Virus record (IMG/VR): IMGVR_UViG_3300028887_000099
Coordinates: 21,888-85,887 of that record
Length of the DNA: 64,000 bases
Origin: a virus
Taxonomy: Duplodnaviria; Caudoviricetes
Direction: 5' to 3' (one strand)
In this document: in pieces, positions 6,173 to 57,788 of the stretch
Layout of the letters: each line of letters starts with the position of its first letter
Position numbering within the stretch: position 1 is the first letter of the stretch
Translations under genes and position numbers: made by a program
Notes under the pieces: generated by a model
What the model was told of the DNA's origin: nothing
What the model saw: only the letters and a program-made list of their open reading frames with translations
Database searches by the model: none

Positions 6173-6541
6173 ATCTGCGCCGTTTCTATAAGGATAGTCC
6201 TCTAATTCTTCAGCCATATATTCAGTACAACTTCCATCAAGAGAAGTCACAAATTTATAACGTCCGTTCCATGTACGAGTTGCCTCAATTAAAATACTAT
6301 TATATAATGATGTGTCATCATTTTCAAATAAAAAATAAACTAAACCATTATTAAATCCTTCTAAAATTTCTGCAGCGGTTTTATCACATTCAAATATATT
6401 CTATTCATAAGTTACTGTAACTATCATGCTTTTACCTCCAGAACCACCTTGATTTAATTGTTCCAACATCCCTCGTAAAATCCATGGGTTTGGATTTGAA
6501 GGAGTTTCCATTATATAGTTCACAATTTCTTCTATCTCCAT
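6170..6541 (-). CDS. hypothetical protein (123 aa) with one in-frame TAG read as Gln
   Basis: RBS AGGAGG, ATG at 6541, TAG at 6401-6403, frame stays open to TAA at 6170. Confidence 0.65.
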
Positions 6542-6654
6542 AATAGGTAAAACCTCCTATAAATCTTAATTACCCTAATATATAAGTCTAAAATTTTCCA
6601 AAAAACTTTAAGAAATATATGGCTGGATGACCTAGCCGTCCAAGGAGTAATTTT

Positions 6655-6879
6655 ATGGAATTTTGGTATGAAGTTCCATTCATTGTATCTTATTTTAATG
6701 TTGAGGGCGCGCAGTCTATTGGAGTAGCATATCACGAATATATAATTGATCTAAAAGAACGGCGCGCAACTTCAACAAAAGAAATTTTAGAAGCGGGTAT
6801 AAAAAGAGGTCAAGATCCTGATGATATAATTATTGAATCTGAAAATTATGAAATTTATGTGGGTGCGTTTTAGGCATGA
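6655..6879 (+). CDS. hypothetical protein
   Basis: RBS AAGGAG; TAG at 6871 is followed by GCA TGA, so the end is 6879 under code 15. Confidence 0.55.
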
Positions 6880-7522
6880 CCGGGCGCACCTTAAAATTTT
6901 CCAGAAAATTTTCCTCAAAATTTTGTAAAAACGTTTAAAGAAGTTTACATTAAAGTGTAAACGATGAAGAATATACTCAAAATTATAATTAAGCGCAAGC
7001 TTTAGGTGTAAGTTTTAGGCGTAAGGTTTGAAGTAAGTTTGAAGTAAGCTTGAATCTGTTAACGCTACTGCCAGCGCGAAGCGCTGGCGTGGGGGGTTGA
7101 AGGGGGGAAGAACCGGGGAGCGAGAGCGCGAAGCGCTCTCGTGGAGCGGTTCTGTGCCTCCCCCCTGGAGCGAGCGCGTAGCGCGGAGCGCTACGCAGGG
7201 AGCTTCTATAAGTAATACTTATAAGTAGTACTTATAAGTAGAATCTAATACGGCTCAACCTTAATTTTGGTCGGTGGCAATGGAAGCTGTCGGTGGCATA
7301 GAAAAAAACTAATTGAAGGAAGTTTTGGAGGAGAGGTTTAGTGGGTTTTTGGGAAGTTTTGGTAAGTTTTAGTGAGTTTTGGTGAGTTTTGGTGAGTTGT
7401 TCCTGCCCTCAAATTTTGAAAGTTAGCAAATTTTGAAAGTTGTCAAATTTTGGAGAGAAAAAACAGAGGGAGCTTTCGCTCCCTCGTATACGTTGTACTT
7501 ATAAGTAGTACTTATAAGTAGG
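6880..7522. repeat. non-coding hairpin and tandem-repeat block (origin, terminus or other cis signal candidate)
   Basis: Three GC-rich hairpins with GAA/GGA loops (7070-7088, 7122-7140, 7177-7197), repeated palindrome TACTTATAAGTA (7205-7240, 7495-7520), tandem TTTTGGTGAG-like and AAATTTTGAAAGT repeats; no ORF. Confidence 0.75.
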
Positions 7523-20297: not shown

Positions 20298-22072
20298 TGG
20301 CAGTAATTTAGTTAATGGACCCTAATATAGTCCAATTTAATACTAAAGACCGTCTTTATCATGATGACATTGAATTAGAAAAAGGAGTTGTAATTACTCC
20401 TTATTTTTTAGAAAAGAATGAAGAGCTTATTTAGCAATATATATAGATTTTTACTGCTTATCCTGATGTTTTTCTTGATTTGATTACTCCTCTTGATTCA
20501 AATTTTACTTTGTTTCCTTATCAACGTTTATTCTTGCGCGCGTGCATGAGATATACAAAAATATATATTACCGCGGCTCGCGCAACTTCAAAAACTTTTC
20601 TTTCTATTCTGGCAAAATATTTGTAGTGTATGTTTTTACCAAATCATGTTGGCTCAATTGTAGCACCAAATAAATAGCAAGCCGCGAAAATTAGTAGATA
20701 GAAAATTGAAGAGATTTGGCGCATTTGGCCTCTTCTTGAAAAAGAAATTGATAAGGCTAATTTTGGTAAAGACTATGTTGATATTTTCTTTAAAAATGGA
20801 AGTCGTCTTTCTATCGTAGGTGCATTAGATTCAGATCGTGGTATTCGAACCCACGCAACTTTAATTGATGAAGCACGTGATCAAGATGGAGATGCAATTA
20901 ATGAAATTATTTTACCATAGATGAATGTGTCTAGACGTATGCATAATGGTTTAATAAATCCATATGAAAAAATAAATACATAGGTTATATATGCAACTTC
21001 TGCTGGTACTAAATCTTCTTATGCTTATGAAGCTTTAATTGATACCTTTGAATAGGCTATAATTGATCCTAAAACTGCTTTTTGTATTGGATTAGATTAT
21101 CGTGTACCAGCGCAACATAATTTAATTGACCCAACTTATGTTCGTAATTTAAAAATGTCACCATCTTATAATGAAGCTACTTTTGCAGCAGAATTTTTAG
21201 GTTAGTGGCTTGGAGGCAGTGATGAATCTTGGTTTGATTTTGAACGTCTTACTAAATATAGAAAAATAAAAAATCCTGAATGGTATCCAAAATTTAGAGA
21301 AGATCCAAATGTTTTTTACTTAATTTCAGTAGACGTAGGCAGACTTCATGACCAAACAGTCGCTTTTATATGGCGAGTTAATATTCGTGATAATAAATAT
21401 TATGGAACTGTAGTGAATTTATTTGTCCTTGGACGTCAAGCAGAATCGAAAACTTTCACTTAGCAGGCAATTGATTTAAAACGTTTAATTGAAATTTATA
21501 CACCGCGCGAAGTCGTAATAGATACAAACGGACTTGGTATTGGTCTTGCAGATGAAATGATTCGGTCTCAACTTGATGAATTTGGAAAAGAATTAGTACC
21601 ATATGGCTTTTTTAATAATGAAGATTATAAAAAGATATAGCCAAAAGAAGCACCACAAATTCTTTATTCCCTAAAAGCTAATGGCCCTCTAAATTCAAAA
21701 ATTCATAGTAATGCCTACTCTCGTATTAATAGTGGTATGGTTCGCTTTTTAATAAGCGAACAAGATGCGCGCGCCGCGCTTCTTGCAACAAAACTAGGTC
21801 AAAAAATGTCCACGGAAGACCGCATTAAGCGTTTAATGCCGCATGAACTTACCACAAAATTATTTGAAGAAATGGCGAATTTACGTTTACGTAAAACGGG
21901 ACTTGATATAGTACTTGAATAGATTAATGCGCGTTTCCCAAAAGATAAATATTCTGCTTTTGCTTATGGGCTATGGCGCATTAAAGAAATTGAAGAGGAA
22001 AACTATAAAAAAGTTAGCCGTAGATAGGGCGGTATTCGTAAATTAATTTTCTTTACTGGAGGAAAAACCTAA
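20297..22072 (+). CDS. terL: terminase large subunit (591 aa, TAG=Gln)
   Basis: Walker A variant TAARATSKT, Walker B TLIDEA, nuclease ISVDVG and C-terminal KDKYSAFAYG; TAATG overlaps at both ends. Confidence 0.9.
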
Positions 22073-49498: not shown

Positions 49499-50609
49499 TA
49501 ACTAATTTTCCTCCTTGTTGAATTACTGCAGGTACACTATAAAACATATCAAAGACTTCATAATTATGAATACGTATGTATTGAAAAGCGGCGCGCATTT
49601 CATCTTTAGATACTACTAGATGTACCCAAGGTAGCATATCCATATATGCTACTTTTCGACTAGAACAATAAGCATATAATGTTTTTTGCCGAGGACGGAA
49701 ATCTTCTAAAAATCCTTTACCATAAAAACAATTAATTAATTTCATTAAATTTAAAAGTTCTGGAGTTTTAAAAAATTCGGTGTCAATATTAAGTAAAATT
49801 TTCTATTTATTCTTTCGTAAAAATAAAGCTTGTTTATAAATTTCTGGTAAGACTCGTATTATAAAATCATTTTCATCAGAACACTAATATGTAAAGTTAT
49901 AAACCAATTGACGTAAAGACATAGAAGGCTCAGCTAACAATTCTATTATCTATTCATCTGTTAATAATCCATTATATTGAAGATAAAAACAACCACCCAT
50001 AGGGTAAATTGTAAGCCATTTTTTTAATATATCAAAGTTATATATTTGTATAGGGTATTTATTTCCTATATGATATTTTAAACCACGAGGGCGCGCATCC
50101 ATAATTTCTTTTATCATATCAAAAGCATTTGGTAAAGTGGCAATATCATAGTCATGTAAAACTACGCATGGATGACGAGGGCGCAATCTCTAAAAGGGGA
50201 ATTCTAAGTAAGTTTTACCATCTAAAGATAATCGTGCATGAGTTGCAGCAATTAAAGTTTTTATTTGAACTGCATCCTATTTACGTAAACCAAAATATCT
50301 ACTAAAACGAGTATAAATTTCAAAATCAGGCTCTATCATTTCCATTTCAATATTAAATGGTTGGTAGATTGATGAGAAGGCGCGCCCTCCATAAGTTACA
50401 GTAGGCATTAAAATAGTTTCATTATATAATCCATCATCATATTCTTTTCTAAAGTAGGTTTTAGTATATATTGTAGGATTAAGTTCATCATGAAAAACGG
50501 CAATATTTTTATTTTTCTTTTCATACGCAGCTAATTTTGCACATTCTAAATTTGGGATTACTCCGGGGTAATGGAAGTAATCATAATCATAAATTAAAAT
50601 TACTGCCAT
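49470..50609 (-). CDS. hypothetical protein (379 aa, TAG=Gln)
   Basis: Track fragments 50277, 49950 and 49470 are one frame joined by TAGs; ends in TAA. Confidence 0.7.
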
Positions 50610-50611
50610 TA

Positions 50612-53600
50612 CTATACCTCAGTTCTTTCAGATTTAATGATTAAGTGAGAATTGTCTAAACCTATAATTTGTTCTACTTTATGATATGGAGTTCTACTAT
50701 ATGTCTTTGCTACAAATGCATCTTCTTGGCGGATACCAGTTATGATAATTTTATTTCCTCTTGTGAAGATGGACTTTTCAATGATATGTTTCTTACCATC
50801 TGCGCCTTTTACAGAAATTTGTTTATCATACTGTTCAAAAACACCACCAAAGATTTTTACAGTCACAACTCCAGTTGTGGTTAAAAGAGACACTGTTTTC
50901 TTTGCTTTATCACGGTCTAAAACTGTTCCTGCAATACGATATAACTTAAAGATAGGAACTTGTTTGCCTTTGATGGGGATGACGCGCTCTACATCTGGAG
51001 TTTCGCTTAACTCAAAGAAATTCACAATTCCATACAATTCAAGATCGGCTGCGACCAGTTCGTGATCATGTGAATAGAATGAAACCGCATCCATTTCCCA
51101 CTTACTTAGATTGCCAAGACAATATTTGTTCCAGACATCACTTGTAAGCTTGTCGTTGATTGCATTGAGTAGCTGTTCTTGGTTCTTTTTAATATATGGA
51201 CGGATTTTATCCATATGTTTTTGATAGATGTTATCCCACTTTGTTTGAGAAACTTTAAAACCACTTTCAGTTTCAGCGGGCAATAACATATCAATATCAA
51301 AATTTTCAGAATAAAAGTTAAATGCAATATTATCTAATCCGTAATAGTTACTATCTAACTTTTGTTTCTTCAAATATTTATTAAAGTTAAATACTTTACA
51401 TACAAAATCAAATTCATTTGGAAGCAACTTAAAATCAATTAACATCTTCATATTTTGAAGAGTGACTCGTTTTTTCGTATCACTAATCATATTTACATAT
51501 TGATGCATTAATTCTACTCGGTCGCCAAATCCGTCGAAGGCGCCCGACTTAATGAGATTAATCATTTGTGCTTTATTGACTTTTACTTTTGAGAGGAAGT
51601 CATTAATGGAAGTATATGGACGATTAGAAATAATTTGTTTGACTATTTCTTCTCCAACTTTTGTGATGCCGCTAATACCATAACGGATTATATTTGCTTC
51701 CATATCTGGTGAGAATGTATAGGTAGATTTGTTGATATCAGGTGGCTCAACATTAATACCACTCATTCTTATCTTACCAATTGCTGTGGCGATTTTCCCA
51801 TAATTTACAGATGAGGTTTTCTTTTTCTTTTTAACTGCTTTAGGTTCATCTTCATCTTCATCTTCATCGTCTTCATCGTCAGAAGAGAAGTCTTCCATTT
51901 CTGTATATGTCTCTTCGACTTGAATAGTTTCTTCTTCTTCTTCCAATTCTTTTTCATCACCGCCTGCATCTGTAATCAAACACGCGCAGTTCCAAAAGAT
52001 AATTGGATATTTATATGCAAGATTCATTTCTTGAAGAGCAATTAAGCTATATGCAAGCGTATGAGATTGATTAAATCCATATCCACGGCTCATTGCAATC
52101 AAAACACGCCATACATATCTTGCAAAGTTTTGATTAATGCCTTTTTCTTTTGTTACTTCAAAGAATTCTTTTGTAAGTGCATCATAATCTTTTGGGTTTT
52201 TCTTTGCAATTGACTTACGAAGTTTATCTGCCCAAGTTAGACTGAAACCACCAAGTTCGGGAAGCTGTACAAGCTCCATGAATTGTTCTTGTGCAATACA
52301 GAGTCCATAAGACATACCCAAAACTGGTTCAAGTATCTCATGTTCTTGCGCGCCCAAGCCATATTTTTCCATTTCTCTATCCCACTCAATAGGATTGGCT
52401 TTAAAGCGAGCAAGTTTTTCAGTTGGCATTTCTCCACCTTTTTCTTGCGCCATTAGACGAATTGTAGAGTTGAGAATCGCCAAATCGTCAACTGATGTGG
52501 GTTTGAGAGTTGCGATACCGCTAATACCGGATTGTTTTTCCATTTGGAATAATGACTGAATCTCGTGATTCCAAACCATTTTCCACATCTTAGGATCATT
52601 TCGTTCTATATTATAAATACCAATTATATTTTCATAAGTTTCTTTGAGAGTGTGCTCGCGTTTAATTAGACCTGCATCACATAATAAGTCAATGCAATTA
52701 TGGATTTTATCCATAGCTTCAACAGAAAGTGCGTCATATTTGATAAGTGATACTGCTTCTGCATCATGCAATTCAAATTGCGTACAAATTGTACCATCAG
52801 GTGCGCGCATTAAAGCGGTAGAGTTTGTGAATGGTTCATCAACAAAGATAACACCACCTGCATGAACCCCAGAACCACAAATTAATCCTTCAATTTTTTG
52901 TGCAACTTTCCATAATTCTGGGTAATTCTCCATTTCAAATATAAACTGCTTAATGGGTTGGAAGCCATTTTCTTCATCACTATTATAACATTGGGACAAA
53001 GTCCTCAACATACCGCGATCAGCAGGAATTAAACTTGCGATATATTGCGCTATATCTACATCAATTCCAAGCCCGCGCGCAGCTGTAAGGATAGCTGATT
53101 TGGATTTTTCTGTGCGGAATGTAGCTACGTTTGCTACTCTATCTTCTCCATAATATTTACGGAACGCATTAAGGACTTGCGTACGACGTCCACCTTCAAT
53201 GTCAAAATCAACGTCAAGTACACTTACACGATCAGGATTCAAAAATCTCCATCTAAAAGTTCTTGTGTTTTCTCTTAATGGGTTAATTTGTGTAATATCC
53301 AGGCAATACAAAAGGATAAAACCAACACCCGAACCACGTCCACAACCAACAAGACTACCCGCCTCCCAGCAAATGTCAATAATATTTTGAAGGTTTAGAT
53401 AATATGCACTCCAGCGAGCTTTATTGACTTCAGATGATACCCACGTGTCTTCCAGGCAAGCATTTATTTCATCATATGCTTCTTTACATTGAAGGTCTGG
53501 ATGATGCTTAATTCCATCGAGAACTGCATTTACTAAATATCTGTCTGCTTCATATTTTGAATCATAAAAAGTTTGAAGCATTGGAATATTTTTAAACCAT

Positions 53601-54593
53601 TCTTCATAATCTGTATAATAGGTCAATACAGGTTTCCATTTCAATGATGGAATTTTGAGTGGGCGCAGTAGACTATAATCTTCAATGTTTTCTTTAATCT
53701 TTAAAATATTTTGGTATGCAGTTTGAATTTCATCTTCTGTAAAATATTTAAAGAAAGATTCTAATTCTTCTGTACCCATCATATAAGTAGTTGCATAGAA
53801 ATCATCAACTTCGCGATCGCCATTCTGTGCATTAAGATATGCTTTATGAACAACTCTATCCTCTTTTTTCAAATAATGAGAATCAGTTGTAATAATATAG
53901 GGGATACCACTAATACCTGCAATTTCTAGCAACTTTTTATTAACATAAATTTGGTCTTTATTTTTACTTGGCTGCATTTCTAAATAAAAATTTCCGCGAC
54001 CAAATAGATTGGCCATCTGATCCACCCAAATACCAATTTTACGCCCTAATTCTGCATTTTGGGTATCTCTATACTTAAGTAATTGTGTTGGAAGTGCACC
54101 ACCAAGACAAGCGGTGGAACCAATTACATGGCCAGGATTTTCGCCGATGATTTCAAACAAATCATTATAATATGTTGGAACACGTCTCATGCCGCGTGCC
54201 ATATAACTACGCATCCATGCGCGCGTTGAGATTTCACGAATTTGCTGCGCGCCGATTGCATCCTTCGCTAGAAGAATAAAATGATAATATTTATCATTTT
54301 CTTTATTATAGTTATTAGCATTTAATCCATTTCTACAAAGATAAATCTCATTACCAAGAATGACTTTAAGGTCGGGATATTTTTCTTTGAGCTTTTTGGC
54401 TGCACTTTCAGCCTTAACCTATCCACTAATACTTTCGTGGTCAGTTAAGGCTACTACTTTATGTCCAAGTTCGCCTGCATAGTTAAATAATTCATCCAAT
54501 TTGTTGATGCAATCGCGCAAACGAATATTACTATAGTCAGAGTGGTTCACCCTAGTTATGAAGACTACCAGGGTATTCAAGTTTAGTCTTCAT
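50612..54593 (-). CDS. dnaE: DNA polymerase III alpha subunit (DnaE family); N-terminus interrupted by a 10-nt insertion (54545-54554) and one in-frame TAG (54419-54421)
   Basis: PHP motifs (LHN/HSDYS, LTDHE, GNEIY, GSTACLGG, TTDSHY), GRGSGVG, LDVDFD, GVHAGG, YGFNQSH. ATG 54593 with RBS encodes MKTKLEYPGSLHN; the rest resumes in a different frame at HSDYSN. Confidence 0.9.
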
Positions 54594-54692
54594 CACTTCG
54601 CATCACCTTCCTTTCGATATTCATTACGAATATTAGAATTATAATTGTGGAAAGTCCCAAATTTTATTCTCTTTCTTCATTTTTCTAATTAT

Positions 54693-54721
54693 ATTATACC
54701 ATAAATTTAAGAAAAAATCAA
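54693..54721 (-). promoter_or_regulatory. sigma70-type promoter for dnaE
   Basis: TTGATT-17-TATAAT with TG. Similar - strand promoters at 60965-60993, 63366-63394 and 63732-63760. Confidence 0.75.
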
Positions 54722-54722
54722 A

Positions 54723-55223
54723 TTAAATTTGTTTCCAATAATAAGCCAAATTTTTATTTCCATAAATTATTTGATAACCTGGGTAACGCTCTTTAAATAA
54801 TTTAGGTGTTAAATTATCTTGTAGATGAATTTCCGCATTATTACCATAAATAGCACCTTGTTTATAAAGATAAGGTATAGCTATTAAGATTGCTTTTGAG
54901 TGATGTTCTGCTTCTTGTACAGCATATTGTGCATCTTTTACAGTTAAATGCTCTAAAACATCACCAAAAATAACTAGATCATAATTTTGTGGGTAAACAA
55001 AATCACAAATATGTTGTTCATATACATAATTATAATTTTTCTTTAATGCTTCTGCTGCATCATGCCATATTTCAACTGCAGTCCATTCATAATTATTACC
55101 TAATATATTATAATATGTTCCGCTCCCTGCACCCATATCACAAATTTTCATACCAGGTTTTAAATAACGCTGTAAGAAAGTTTTAATTTCTGCCTTCCCC
55201 ACCCAAGTACTTGTTCCAAACAT
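54723..55223 (-). CDS. class I SAM-dependent methyltransferase
   Basis: Motif I ICDMGAGSG and YDLVIFGDVLEH. Confidence 0.8.
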   Translation of the reverse strand: MFGTSTWVGKAEIKTFLQRYLKPGMKICDMGAGSGTYYNILGNNYEWTAVEIWHDAAEALKKNYNYVYEQHICDFVYPQNYDLVIFGDVLEHLTVKDAQYAVQEAEHHSKAILIAIPYLYKQGAIYGNNAEIHLQDNLTPKLFKERYPGYQIIYGNKNLAYYWKQI

Positions 55224-55294
55224 GTTTCACCTCAAACCTGTAAGCCATTTAAGCCATATAATAATAATAATAATTAAAAAAATCCAAAACATTG

Positions 55295-55981
55295 TTATTC
55301 CTCATATTTCCATTTATAACCATATGCTGTTTTACTTTTACCATTTCCAGTTGCTGCGCAAGATATATTTCCCGGTGAACCATGTACTGCTTTTGCTGCT
55401 TCTGCTAAACTATTAAAAGAAGTAATATAATTGTTGTTCAAATCATATTGATTAATTTTTTTTCTACGTTTCTTAACACCTTTTTTTATAATTTCTAATC
55501 TTTTTTCATATGTTCGTTGTTCTATTTCTTCTTTAGTAATACCTAACGACAACAATTGCTCTCTTATTCTCTATCCGGTTGCACCATACTATTTATAAAT
55601 TTGTGTCACTGTTAAATGTAAATCGTTCCAATAATGTAATATTTCTTCTGTTGTAAAATAAAATGGTTTTGTATAATTACGTCCACCATAGGTTATATTA
55701 TATCCATGTTCGAGTACATGGCTCTATAATTTATTAATCCAATATTTTTCTTTTTCATCCAACTCATCAATACTACATTCTTCTAAAATTTCATAATTAA
55801 AATTTTCAACTCCATATTTTCTTAATGCCTAGTGAAAAATACTACTATCATTTTTCGCTTTATCATTATTAAAAGCGGTATTAATATAAAGATGATAACG
55901 TCTATTTAACTATTTACTCTAACCAATATATCTTTTTCCATTTAATTTGTTAGTAAAACAATATATACCAATTTTATCCAT
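55295..55981 (-). CDS. free-standing GIY-YIG homing endonuclease with NUMOD1-like C-terminus (228 aa, TAG=Gln)
   Basis: GIYCFTNKLNGKRYIG-(TAG)-S; FHQALRKYG; C-terminal INQYDLNNNYITSFNSLAEAAK...GNISCAA...TAYGYKWKY. Confidence 0.88.
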
Positions 55982-56048
55982 CGTACTCACCTCTATTTTA
56001 AAGTAAAATTTTAATAAAATAACTTTAAGAAAATGATTTATTGAAATT

Positions 56049-57788
56049 TTAAAATTCTAAAAGTGAGTCGATTATTTCATAATTTTCAATAAATATTTGT
56101 GGAGTAATATTCCCCATCCATTTATTTAAATTCGCTTTACCTACTAAATTAATTTTAATTTCATTACATTTATTTAATTCTTCTATCATATTAAGAGCAT
56201 GAAATTTCATATATGCAATTCCATTATGAATAATTTTTAATGTATCCTTATTTGCTCCCATAATTTGAATATCTGTTATGTCTACATATAAATTTTTTAT
56301 ATAAATTAAAGCTTCTGGATTTTGTTGACCCCATACTTCTGGATATTGAGTTAAATTAATAATTAATTGTTCAATATCTTTATCATCTGCTTGACGTACA
56401 AAATTTACATTATAAGAACCCTCATTAAAATCAATATTTTGTAAAACTTGATTTGCATATTCATGAAAAGATCGTAAATTTTTATCAAGAATACTACATC
56501 CTGCAGCATTAGCATGCCCTTGCACATATTCAAAATATCCACTATCATTTAAAAAAGTTTTTAAATCAGTTAATTCACAATCTGATACATTTCGTATTGA
56601 TCCTCTATCATAACCTTCTTCGTTAAGACGAGCGATAATTGTTGGGTGCTTAAAACGCGCAGCCAATTTCATTGCAATTAATCCATTTATTTCTGATGGA
56701 AAATCATCCTCTTCTTCTAATCTAACGAATAAAATTTTATTTTGAAGTAAGTCATATTTATGAATTTTTTGTTCTAATTTTTCTACCATTTGGTCGGTAA
56801 TGCGATTTTGTTTAGATTTTGCATTTGTACACTCACGAAGAGATTCAATTGCAACTTTTTCCATTGTCCCCGCTGCGCCGCGCTTATGACATGGAACTTG
56901 ACGATGACCATCAATTAGCCCTAAGAATAAGCGTTCTTTTTCTTCCATAGAGCCAACTCGAATAAGAGCATTCATCATTGGGACAATATAGAAAGCTACA
57001 GTGGTGGGATTTACCATGCCATTCATAGAATATGATTGTTTATTTATAGCACTTTGAAAGAAATAATTTTGAATATTATTAAATCCATTTTTCATAATAA
57101 AACGATTTTCAAGATTTAAAACAGACCCCATATCTCCACAAATGCCAAGAGCAGCAAGGTCAATTAAATCGGCATAATATCTATCATTATTTATAATAGC
57201 TCCATAAAATCTACAGAATTGCCATGTTACCCCTGCACCAGTTAAGTCTTTATTAGGATAATGTAATGATGTTTGATTATTAATTAAACAAGCATATTGA
57301 CTAATTTTTTGATTTTCATCTATCTCATGGTGATCAAGAATTAAAAATCTTGTGCCTCGTGCACCAATACTTTCATGATACTCATAATCATTACTAGAAC
57401 TGTCTGGTAATATAATAAGGTCATAAACTACTTCATCATTATTTAATAAAGTTTCATAATGGTCTTGTAAACCATGTTGTTTATGTTCATGTAAAATATA
57501 GTTAATTGATTGATTTGGAGCAATAAGTTTTATATATTGATATATAATTGCCGCAGATGTAAAACCGTCAACATCACAATCAACTATAATTAAAATTTTA
57601 GAATTATCTGTATGAAGAATTTCTTTTAAAAGATTAGCTCCTTCTGTTATATTGTCTAATAATTGAGGATTATTTAATTGTTGTCTAGATGGATTTAAAA
57701 ATTCTTTTATATCTGTTACACCGCGTGCGGTGAGTAAATTTTCAAGATAATTAGTTGTAAAATTTTCATTTGCTAACTTAACTTTCAT
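56049..57788 (-). CDS. RecJ-like DHH-family ssDNA exonuclease
   Basis: VDCDVDGFTS, ILDHH, GICGDM, RGSIR, GHANAAG motifs. Confidence 0.88.
   Translation of the reverse strand: MKVKLANENFTTNYLENLLTARGVTDIKEFLNPSRQQLNNPQLLDNITEGANLLKEILHTDNSKILIIVDCDVDGFTSAAIIYQYIKLIAPNQSINYILHEHKQHGLQDHYETLLNNDEVVYDLIILPDSSSNDYEYHESIGARGTRFLILDHHEIDENQKISQYACLINNQTSLHYPNKDLTGAGVTWQFCRFYGAIINNDRYYADLIDLAALGICGDMGSVLNLENRFIMKNGFNNIQNYFFQSAINKQSYSMNGMVNPTTVAFYIVPMMNALIRVGSMEEKERLFLGLIDGHRQVPCHKRGAAGTMEKVAIESLRECTNAKSKQNRITDQMVEKLEQKIHKYDLLQNKILFVRLEEEDDFPSEINGLIAMKLAARFKHPTIIARLNEEGYDRGSIRNVSDCELTDLKTFLNDSGYFEYVQGHANAAGCSILDKNLRSFHEYANQVLQNIDFNEGSYNVNFVRQADDKDIEQLIINLTQYPEVWGQQNPEALIYIKNLYVDITDIQIMGANKDTLKIIHNGIAYMKFHALNMIEELNKCNEIKINLVGKANLNKWMGNITPQIFIENYEIIDSLLEF

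Follow-up and report, generated by a model that had tools for sequence, protein, structure and literature searches.

A 10-nt coding gap in the dnaE gene of a bovine gut phage, probably crossed by a short ribosomal hop and apparently carried by a homing-endonuclease cassette

Programmed bypassing, in which the ribosome leaves a stretch of message untranslated and resumes downstream, is known from very few systems. The bypass of T4 gene 60 lies within a homing-endonuclease element, MobA (Bonocora et al. 2011, as cited in PMC5009743; Manning and Atkins, bioRxiv 10.1101/2022.08.31.505936). Synthetic stop-hops in Escherichia coli were inefficient (Weiss et al. 1987, as reviewed in PMC5009743), and according to the same 2016 review no natural in-frame stop-hop was known. 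The byps of Magnusiomyces capitatus mitochondria are GC-cluster-like inserts of 27-55 nt found in many genes (Lang et al. 2014, as cited in bioRxiv 10.1101/2022.08.31.505936), and the junction peptide of the Streptomyces phage Hau3 bypass was seen by mass spectrometry in E. coli (PMC10732093). Here we describe a 10-nt gap near the 5' end of dnaE, the gene for the DNA polymerase III alpha subunit, in an uncultured rumen phage (Caudoviricetes) from bovine gut samples. The window, by which we mean the whole stretch of 64,000 nt that was analysed, covers positions 21,888 to 85,887, i.e. the last 64 kb, of the 85.9-kb viral record IMGVR_UViG_3300028887_000099. According to the 2022 survey of gene 60, reports of comparable bypassing in other phages were lacking (bioRxiv 10.1101/2022.08.31.505936), and no published account of these dnaE gaps was found in the literature.

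On the - strand of the window, on which all window features given below lie, dnaE begins with ATG at 54593 and runs for 13 codons (54555-54593) that end with the first His of the PHP motif and Asn13, the latter encoded by AAC (54555-54557), the putative take-off codon. Immediately 3' of this codon stands an in-frame UAG (54552-54554), followed by a GGUG spacer (54548-54551) and a second AAC (54545-54547), the putative landing triplet. Stop, spacer and landing triplet make up the 10-nt gap (54545-54554), which sits between both His codons of the PHP motif. The second coding segment (50612-54544) opens with the CAC of the second His (54544-54542) and continues in the +1 frame for ~1,310 codons, with one internal TAG (54419-54421). 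If the UAG were read through, the zero frame would end at a TGA (54537-54539), 18 codons after the ATG. A first-pass annotation, made from the letters of the stretch alone, had proposed both the gap and this early end of the zero frame, and both were confirmed at the same positions. The closest gapless relative (L001/L098, 87% amino acid identity) encodes the same peptide without the 10 nt.

The protein encoded by the second segment contains the PHP, Pol III alpha NTPase, finger and HHH domains in order (Pfam E-values of 5e-20 to 2e-52), and its identity as DnaE is also supported by a match to the Thermus Pol III alpha structure. Pfam aligns the PHP domain from profile position 4 onwards only, which places the first His of the His-x-His motif 5' of the gap. 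The PHP motif of a gapless relative aligns with LHQH of the Thermus structure.

The 10 nt were present in contigs of three studies, in three sequence variants, and a sequencing error, one of the explanations initially entertained, was rejected on the strength of these independent samples. One independent-sample contig (X3) matched over 1379 nt with zero differences. A 134-nt variant (X4) showed 15 differences and no indel, and 14 of these differences were synonymous in the downstream frame, the fifteenth changing the second AAC to AGC; a 905-nt variant (X6) showed 20 differences, again with no indel. All three kept the 10 nt. The AGC landing allele was also found in two viral contigs of other metagenomes (L023 and L024). 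A joint in X6 that skips 54235-54550 was set aside, being supported on one side by 30 nt and probably derived from another phage. The bare pattern of a codon, a stop, the same codon within 12 nt and a long open frame gave 227 chance hits in the 86-kb genome, with nothing convincing among them. The pattern being this common by chance, the case rests on the relatives and on protein sequence that is conserved to either side of the gap. Comparison of the genome with a 115-kb relative, open reading frame by open reading frame, revealed no other split genes, the few candidates being tRNA regions or antisense frames.

Three scans yielded ~125 distinct related dnaE loci, of which 103 unique loci were used for the gap count. 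Alignment of 5' ends with and without the insert bore out the presence of a discrete insertion: gapless relatives have exactly 33 nt from the Tyr codon to the Ser-Asn codons (59/59 in the first set of 80 loci and likewise in all later gapless loci), and a gap was found in 26 of the 103, in 15 types. Gap lengths were 4, 5, 6, 7, 8, 10, 11 or 12 nt. Each of the three frame classes is represented, the gaps of 6 and 12 nt being in frame. Gaps occurred after four codons of the motif. After the first His they read CAU UAG UUUAUU CAU (12 nt), CAU UGA CC CAA (8 nt) and CAU UAG UU CAA (8 nt). Asn was followed by AAC UAG GGUG AAC (10 nt, the window type, of which an AGC version exists), AAC UAG GGUUG AAC (11 nt), AAC UAG GG AAC (8 nt), AAU UAG GG AGC (8 nt), AAY UGA GG AAC (8 nt), AAU UA AAC (5 nt), AAU U AAC (4 nt) and AAU U AGC (4 nt). 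A single type, CAC UAG C UAU (7 nt), followed the second His, and three followed Ser: UCU UAG CG UCA (8 nt), UCU UAG UCA (6 nt, L097) and UCU UAG CGAAA UCU (11 nt).

An in-frame stop (UAG, UGA or UAA) stood immediately after the last conserved codon in 15/15 types. The triplet before the resume codon was identical or synonymous to the take-off codon in 10 of the 15; in the other five it was near-cognate by a G.U or wobble step (AGC for Asn, CAA or UAU for His). It was always the first cognate or near-cognate triplet 3' of the take-off codon; in the window, the landing AAC is the first Asn-cognate triplet. These regularities strongly support the signature of bypassing that had been ascribed to the window gap. 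The peptide encoded by the upstream mini-segment was kept through synonymous changes, including AGU <-> UCN switches between Ser codons, and in the Ser types the entire His-x-His-Ser-Asp motif lies 5' of the gap and is conserved in the same way. Such conservation indicates that the upstream peptide is translated and joined to the rest of the protein.

In a tree of the polymerase body, gap-bearing genes were scattered among near-identical gapless ones. Many gap types share ancestry, so that independent origins should be fewer than the types, perhaps five to seven and not 15. One locus with the 4-nt type AAU U AGC (L221:1400-1510) had no canonical in-frame start 5' of the conserved peptide, and this gene may be decaying or using an unusual start. 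A frame change in L010 was discounted as a gap, since it is of an ordinary kind: a single base is missing from a run of T. Matches from cultured phages of the phage collection were only ~40-44% identical in the region and gave no sign of a gap.

A feature conserved in all gap-bearing genes, and absent from the first-pass annotation, is a hairpin that includes the start codon. Counted from the start codon, the opening 10-15 nt of the reading frame are complementary to the 10-15 nt that end at or next to the take-off codon. In the window, the 5' arm AUGAAGACUA (54584-54593) pairs at 10/10 positions with the 3' arm UAGUCUUCAU (54558-54567), which adjoins the take-off codon on its 5' side, and this stem dominates the predicted fold. 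The duplex reached a ΔG of -8 kcal/mol or lower in 25/25 unique gap-bearing 5' ends (median -11.4), and did so in 3/43 and 4/73 gapless controls at equivalent positions. Alignment with MAFFT followed by RNAalifold on the His/Asn types returned no structure, the 5' arms being misaligned owing to loops of variable length, and a fixed-register pair count was used in its place. By this count, 15/19 His/Asn types paired at 9-10 of 10 positions, compared with a gapless mean of 5.4 and maximum of 8. Compensatory changes were seen in two pairs, one G-C <-> A-U and the other C-G <-> U.G. The Ser types have three different stems, which co-vary with the Ser/Thr-Asp-Tyr/Phe codons.

Other RNA features recognized in the window generalized less well. 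The take-off hairpin UAGGGUG/CACUCUG, put forward initially as a feature of the gap, is predicted as a 7-bp stem, scores no better than shuffled sequences (z of about -0.3 to -0.7) and is present in some types and absent from most. Take-off or downstream hairpins as a general signal were dismissed, the z-scores of 16-23 folded gap types being spread around zero. The Shine-Dalgarno-like G-rich stretch within the gap recurs in the Asn-codon types, and in these only, so that the observation stands for them and not as a general feature.

L134 and near-identical gapless phages differ in one 1,056-nt block only. This block terminates exactly at the gap, takes the place of codons 2-12 and contains a 97-amino acid open reading frame, a GIY-YIG endonuclease gene, a new Shine-Dalgarno sequence, recoded first codons and the gap. 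Across the loci, a homing endonuclease lay upstream in 13/26 gap-bearing and 12/77 gapless cases (p = 0.001), and the endonucleases adjoining gapless genes were of other families. Full-length GIY-YIG endonucleases, 63-66% identical to one another, lie directly 5' of His/Asn-type gaps, and HNH endonucleases lie upstream of three Ser-type gaps. One 11-nt Ser-type gap (L224:1-495) is preceded by a DUF2726 protein and not by an HNH or GIY-YIG endonuclease. The endonuclease has been lost at several gap-bearing loci, the window included, where its last 19 codons and stop remain (54596-54652, 57 nt; 95% identity by tblastn to the C-terminus of the L103 endonuclease, E-value 1e-6). The TGA of this remnant overlaps the dnaE ATG by one base. 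Endonuclease stops that overlap the dnaE start or lie just inside it were also seen in L103 (3940-3960, as TGATG) and L099 (3940-3950), which suggests translational coupling of endonuclease and polymerase in these two. The sequences thus delineate the gap as the right-hand edge of a mobile cassette that also comprises recoded first codons, a new ribosome-binding site and a homing endonuclease gene, and the gap itself may serve an immunity function.

In the window, an extended Shine-Dalgarno sequence, GGAAGGTGAT (54602-54611), lies 8 nt 5' of the ATG. In the first set, all 20 gap-bearing 5' ends carried the motif GGTGAT and none of the 61 others did; exceptions occur in the second set. Four gapless loci (L185, L193, L179 and L197) carry a GGTGAT ribosome-binding site, and two of them, L185 and L193, begin Met-Lys as the cassettes do. 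These four may represent the donor lineage of the first codons of the cassette, or cassettes from which the gap has been lost.

From this comparative evidence we consider it probable that the 10 nt are an untranslated coding gap crossed by a short programmed ribosomal hop, which would repair an endonuclease-immunity insert and make the locus a miniature, independent counterpart of T4 gene 60/MobA. Translation would begin at AUG 54593, behind the strong extended Shine-Dalgarno sequence, and after 13 codons peptidyl-tRNA-Asn would occupy the AAC with UAG in the A site. Because UAG is slow to decode, the tRNA would unpair and the mRNA would slip by 10 nt, restoring the His-x-His metal site of the PHP domain. 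The slip may be driven by the hairpin between the start-codon region and the 10 nt before the take-off codon, which could re-form behind the ribosome. When the ribosome is on the take-off codon the 3' arm lies inside it, and the stem, re-forming as the mRNA exits, may pull the message forward, as has been suggested for the 5' stem-loop in gene 60 (bioRxiv 10.1101/2024.12.09.627546; 10.1101/2022.08.31.505936). At the DNA level, the gap would break the endonuclease target in the conserved His-x-His sequence and would for this reason persist as an immunity scar, the endonuclease gene in the window having been deleted later.

Several observations weigh against a hop of this kind. RNA evidence consists of a single RNA-library contig, which stops within the gap. 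At take-off the nascent chain would be only 11-18 residues long, which makes an exit-tunnel signal like that of gene 60 unlikely, and so short a peptidyl-tRNA should be prone to drop-off. Landing triplets are imperfect in five types, and AGC replaces AAC in strain variants of the window gap itself. The L054 type has within its gap, before the proposed landing site, a UAU, the presumed landing triplet of another type. The window phage has an amber suppressor tRNA, which would compete with the hop. Taken alone, the window hairpin is modestly better than shuffled sequences (z = -1.7). Some of the matched flanking triplets could, in addition, reflect the origin of the insert and not selection for re-pairing.

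Each of the alternatives is less probable. Shifty-stop frameshifting would involve a +1 shift (+2 in other types) at the UAG, with the rest of the gap read and 1-3 extra residues added, here Arg-Val-Asn between the two His. A gap of 3n+1 nt fits this idea, types of 4 and 5 nt formally amount to shifts of +1 and +2, and an A-site stop, as present here, is known to stimulate +1 shifting. In-frame gaps of 6 and 12 nt exist, however, and with lengths in all three frame classes no single frameshift accounts for them. Moreover, AAC-U offers tRNA-Asn no +1 re-pairing, there is no prfB-like Shine-Dalgarno sequence 3 nt upstream, the extra residues would part the two His of a metal site, and frameshifting gives no reason for the last extra residue always to repeat the take-off residue. 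We therefore regard it as unlikely. A second alternative is termination at the UAG with reinitiation one base on, at GUG (54550-54548), which would make the first segment a 13-codon leader and yield a DnaE without its first strand and first His. Stop-start coupling is common among phages, the GUG lies in the downstream frame just 5' of the AAC, and 11-nt relatives carry UUG at the equivalent place. Most types, among them the 8-nt Asn types and all Ser types, nevertheless lack a possible start codon (AUG, GUG or UUG) close to the gap in the downstream frame, so that reinitiation is not general; initiation at the in-gap GTG, raised at the outset as an alternative, fails as a general explanation on the same ground. 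A discarded upstream peptide would not remain conserved, yet the Ser types keep the whole His-x-His-Ser-Asp motif 5' of the gap with synonymous changes, and reinitiation accordingly has a low probability.

It is very improbable that the dnaE genes of gap-bearing phages are broken or dispensable alleles, inactive or nearly so and tolerated through co-infecting helpers or the host polymerase. The cassette does act as a selfish element, but the ~1,310 downstream codons are open in every gap-bearing contig, strain differences are nearly all synonymous and the gap occurs in a quarter of unique relatives, across many clades; the stop-first rule and the hairpin would be without purpose in a dead gene. 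Removal of the 10 nt from the RNA before translation, as a micro-intron or by editing or polymerase slippage, is hardly to be expected either. In these phages, dnaE and recJ often contain group I introns and endonuclease inserts, but inserts of 4-12 nt are below the size of any known self-splicing RNA and there is no homopolymer run for slippage. Covariance models detected no Rfam family at E-values up to 1 in window positions 50000-56500, which speaks against the group I intron remnant once considered, as a general explanation. A stop that is always present in frame, together with a landing triplet that is cognate, implicates the ribosome. An RNA-library contig (X21) retains the first 8 nt of the gap and ends inside it, a weak argument against removal: as it covers part of the gap and may be DNA carry-over, it does not settle the matter of splicing.

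UAG has a second role in this phage. The full record contains 37 tRNA genes, one with a CUA anticodon, and UAG must be read as sense in several genes of the window phage. Competition from this suppressor would divert ribosomes from the hop to the TGA at 54539-54537, and a late shut-off of polymerase synthesis by this route is a speculative possibility. The tie between gap and recoding drawn in the first-pass annotation is not required, however, and the gap device itself is independent of recoding, because gaps also begin with UGA or UAA and because a phage with a UAG gap lacks a suppressor: one genome with the 12-nt in-frame UAG gap, at 93% completeness, encodes no suppressor tRNA, and no further in-frame UAG occurs in its recJ, endonuclease or dnaE genes. 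The dnaE gene of the window ends with TAG and a second stop in tandem (50609-50614), so that its C-terminus would vary by one residue with suppressor activity. Its sole internal TAG (54419-54421) aligns with Trp (TGG) in 7/9 relatives, and the anticodon arm of the CUA suppressor tRNA is that of the phage tRNA-Trp except for the middle anticodon base (G000 10542-10616 and 21383-21458). It may be worth re-examining the customary reading of TAG as Gln; whole-sequence similarity was uninformative as to the identity of the suppressor.

Upstream of the cassette remnant lie a promoter-like site, TTGATT-17-TATAAT with a TG extension (54693-54721), which is homologous to the dnaE promoter of gapless relatives, and a SAM-methyltransferase-like gene of 166 amino acids (54723-55223), situated between dnaE and an intact homing endonuclease gene. 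The latter (55295-55990), of GIY-YIG and NUMOD1 type, was rejected as the partner of the gap, its family being different from that of the gap-linked endonuclease. It has six in-frame TAGs and would be translatable only with an active suppressor tRNA; 4-6 TAGs are also present in several cassette endonucleases of relatives (L099, L111 and L115). In some relatives (L014:5436-6828; L128 and L137 near 6263-7365), dnaE contains a further insert of 1.1-1.4 kb with a GIY-YIG gene and a frame change, probably an intron with a homing endonuclease. The neighbouring gene recJ has, in L111, L133, L170 and L171, a GIY-YIG-encoding insert of ~0.9 kb at residue 425 or 487, which may be an intron or a split gene.

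If the 10-nt gap is indeed bypassed, a wider picture can be sketched, which we offer tentatively and as doubtful when all of its parts are taken together. The gaps would be efficient, hairpin-driven natural stop-hops, in which refolding of the stem behind the stalled ribosome pulls the mRNA by at most one stem length, explaining the maximum of ~12 nt. The same hairpin would bury the start codon, so that one ribosome at a time enters the hop zone. Such hops would have originated separately from gene 60, as the half of homing-endonuclease cassettes that confers immunity, and in amber-recoding phages, the present one among them, polymerase synthesis would be shut off once the suppressor tRNA appears.

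The phage family supplies dozens of natural variants of a putative minimal hop, with gaps of 4-12 nt, three stops, four take-off codons, perfect or wobble landing and a co-varying hairpin, and these constitute a ready-made mutational series on ribosome release and landing. The pairing of a homing endonuclease with a bypassed immunity insert suggests a recurring evolutionary solution and not a T4 one-off. In practical terms, gene callers will split or truncate such polymerase genes.

As in prfB-type frameshifting, an A-site stop would promote the change of frame at this locus. The prfB-type +1 shift requires a slippery P-site codon and a Shine-Dalgarno sequence 3 nt upstream, in contrast to which CUU CAU AAC UAG has neither. 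The Hau3 terminase bypass at UUA resembles the dnaE case in that a phage gene is joined by a hop over a slow-to-decode codon, but it is set off by a rare sense codon, linked to the supply of tRNA in the host, and it has no endonuclease cassette (PMC10732093). The M. capitatus byps, like the dnaE gaps, are many short mobile inserts in essential genes, with matched flanking codons, and are bypassed in translation; they begin with an unreadable sense codon, whereas the dnaE gaps begin with a stop. The closest formal match is the synthetic stop-hop of E. coli, and one relative (L097, UCU UAG UCA) has exactly that design, which here recurs in nature and is accompanied by a conserved hairpin. T4 gene 60/MobA and the dnaE gaps have much in common: both interrupt an essential replication gene, both have take-off and landing codons that match, with a stop next to the former and, upstream of it, a stem-loop able to form behind the ribosome, and both are associated with a homing endonuclease gene whose loss the gap outlives, self-cleavage being the event that the gap is proposed to block. 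The dnaE gaps differ from gene 60 in length (4-12 nt compared with 50 nt), in the gene affected (dnaE in phages of Firmicute-like hosts compared with a topoisomerase subunit, Topo2L), in a take-off at codon 11-18 that makes a long nascent-peptide signal unlikely, in a hairpin that includes the start codon in place of a general take-off stem-loop, and in GIY-YIG or HNH endonucleases of other families. Gene 60 is one homologous cassette, whereas dnaE presents many gap positions and sequences; in its working the dnaE gap resembles gene 60, but it does not belong to the gene 60 element.
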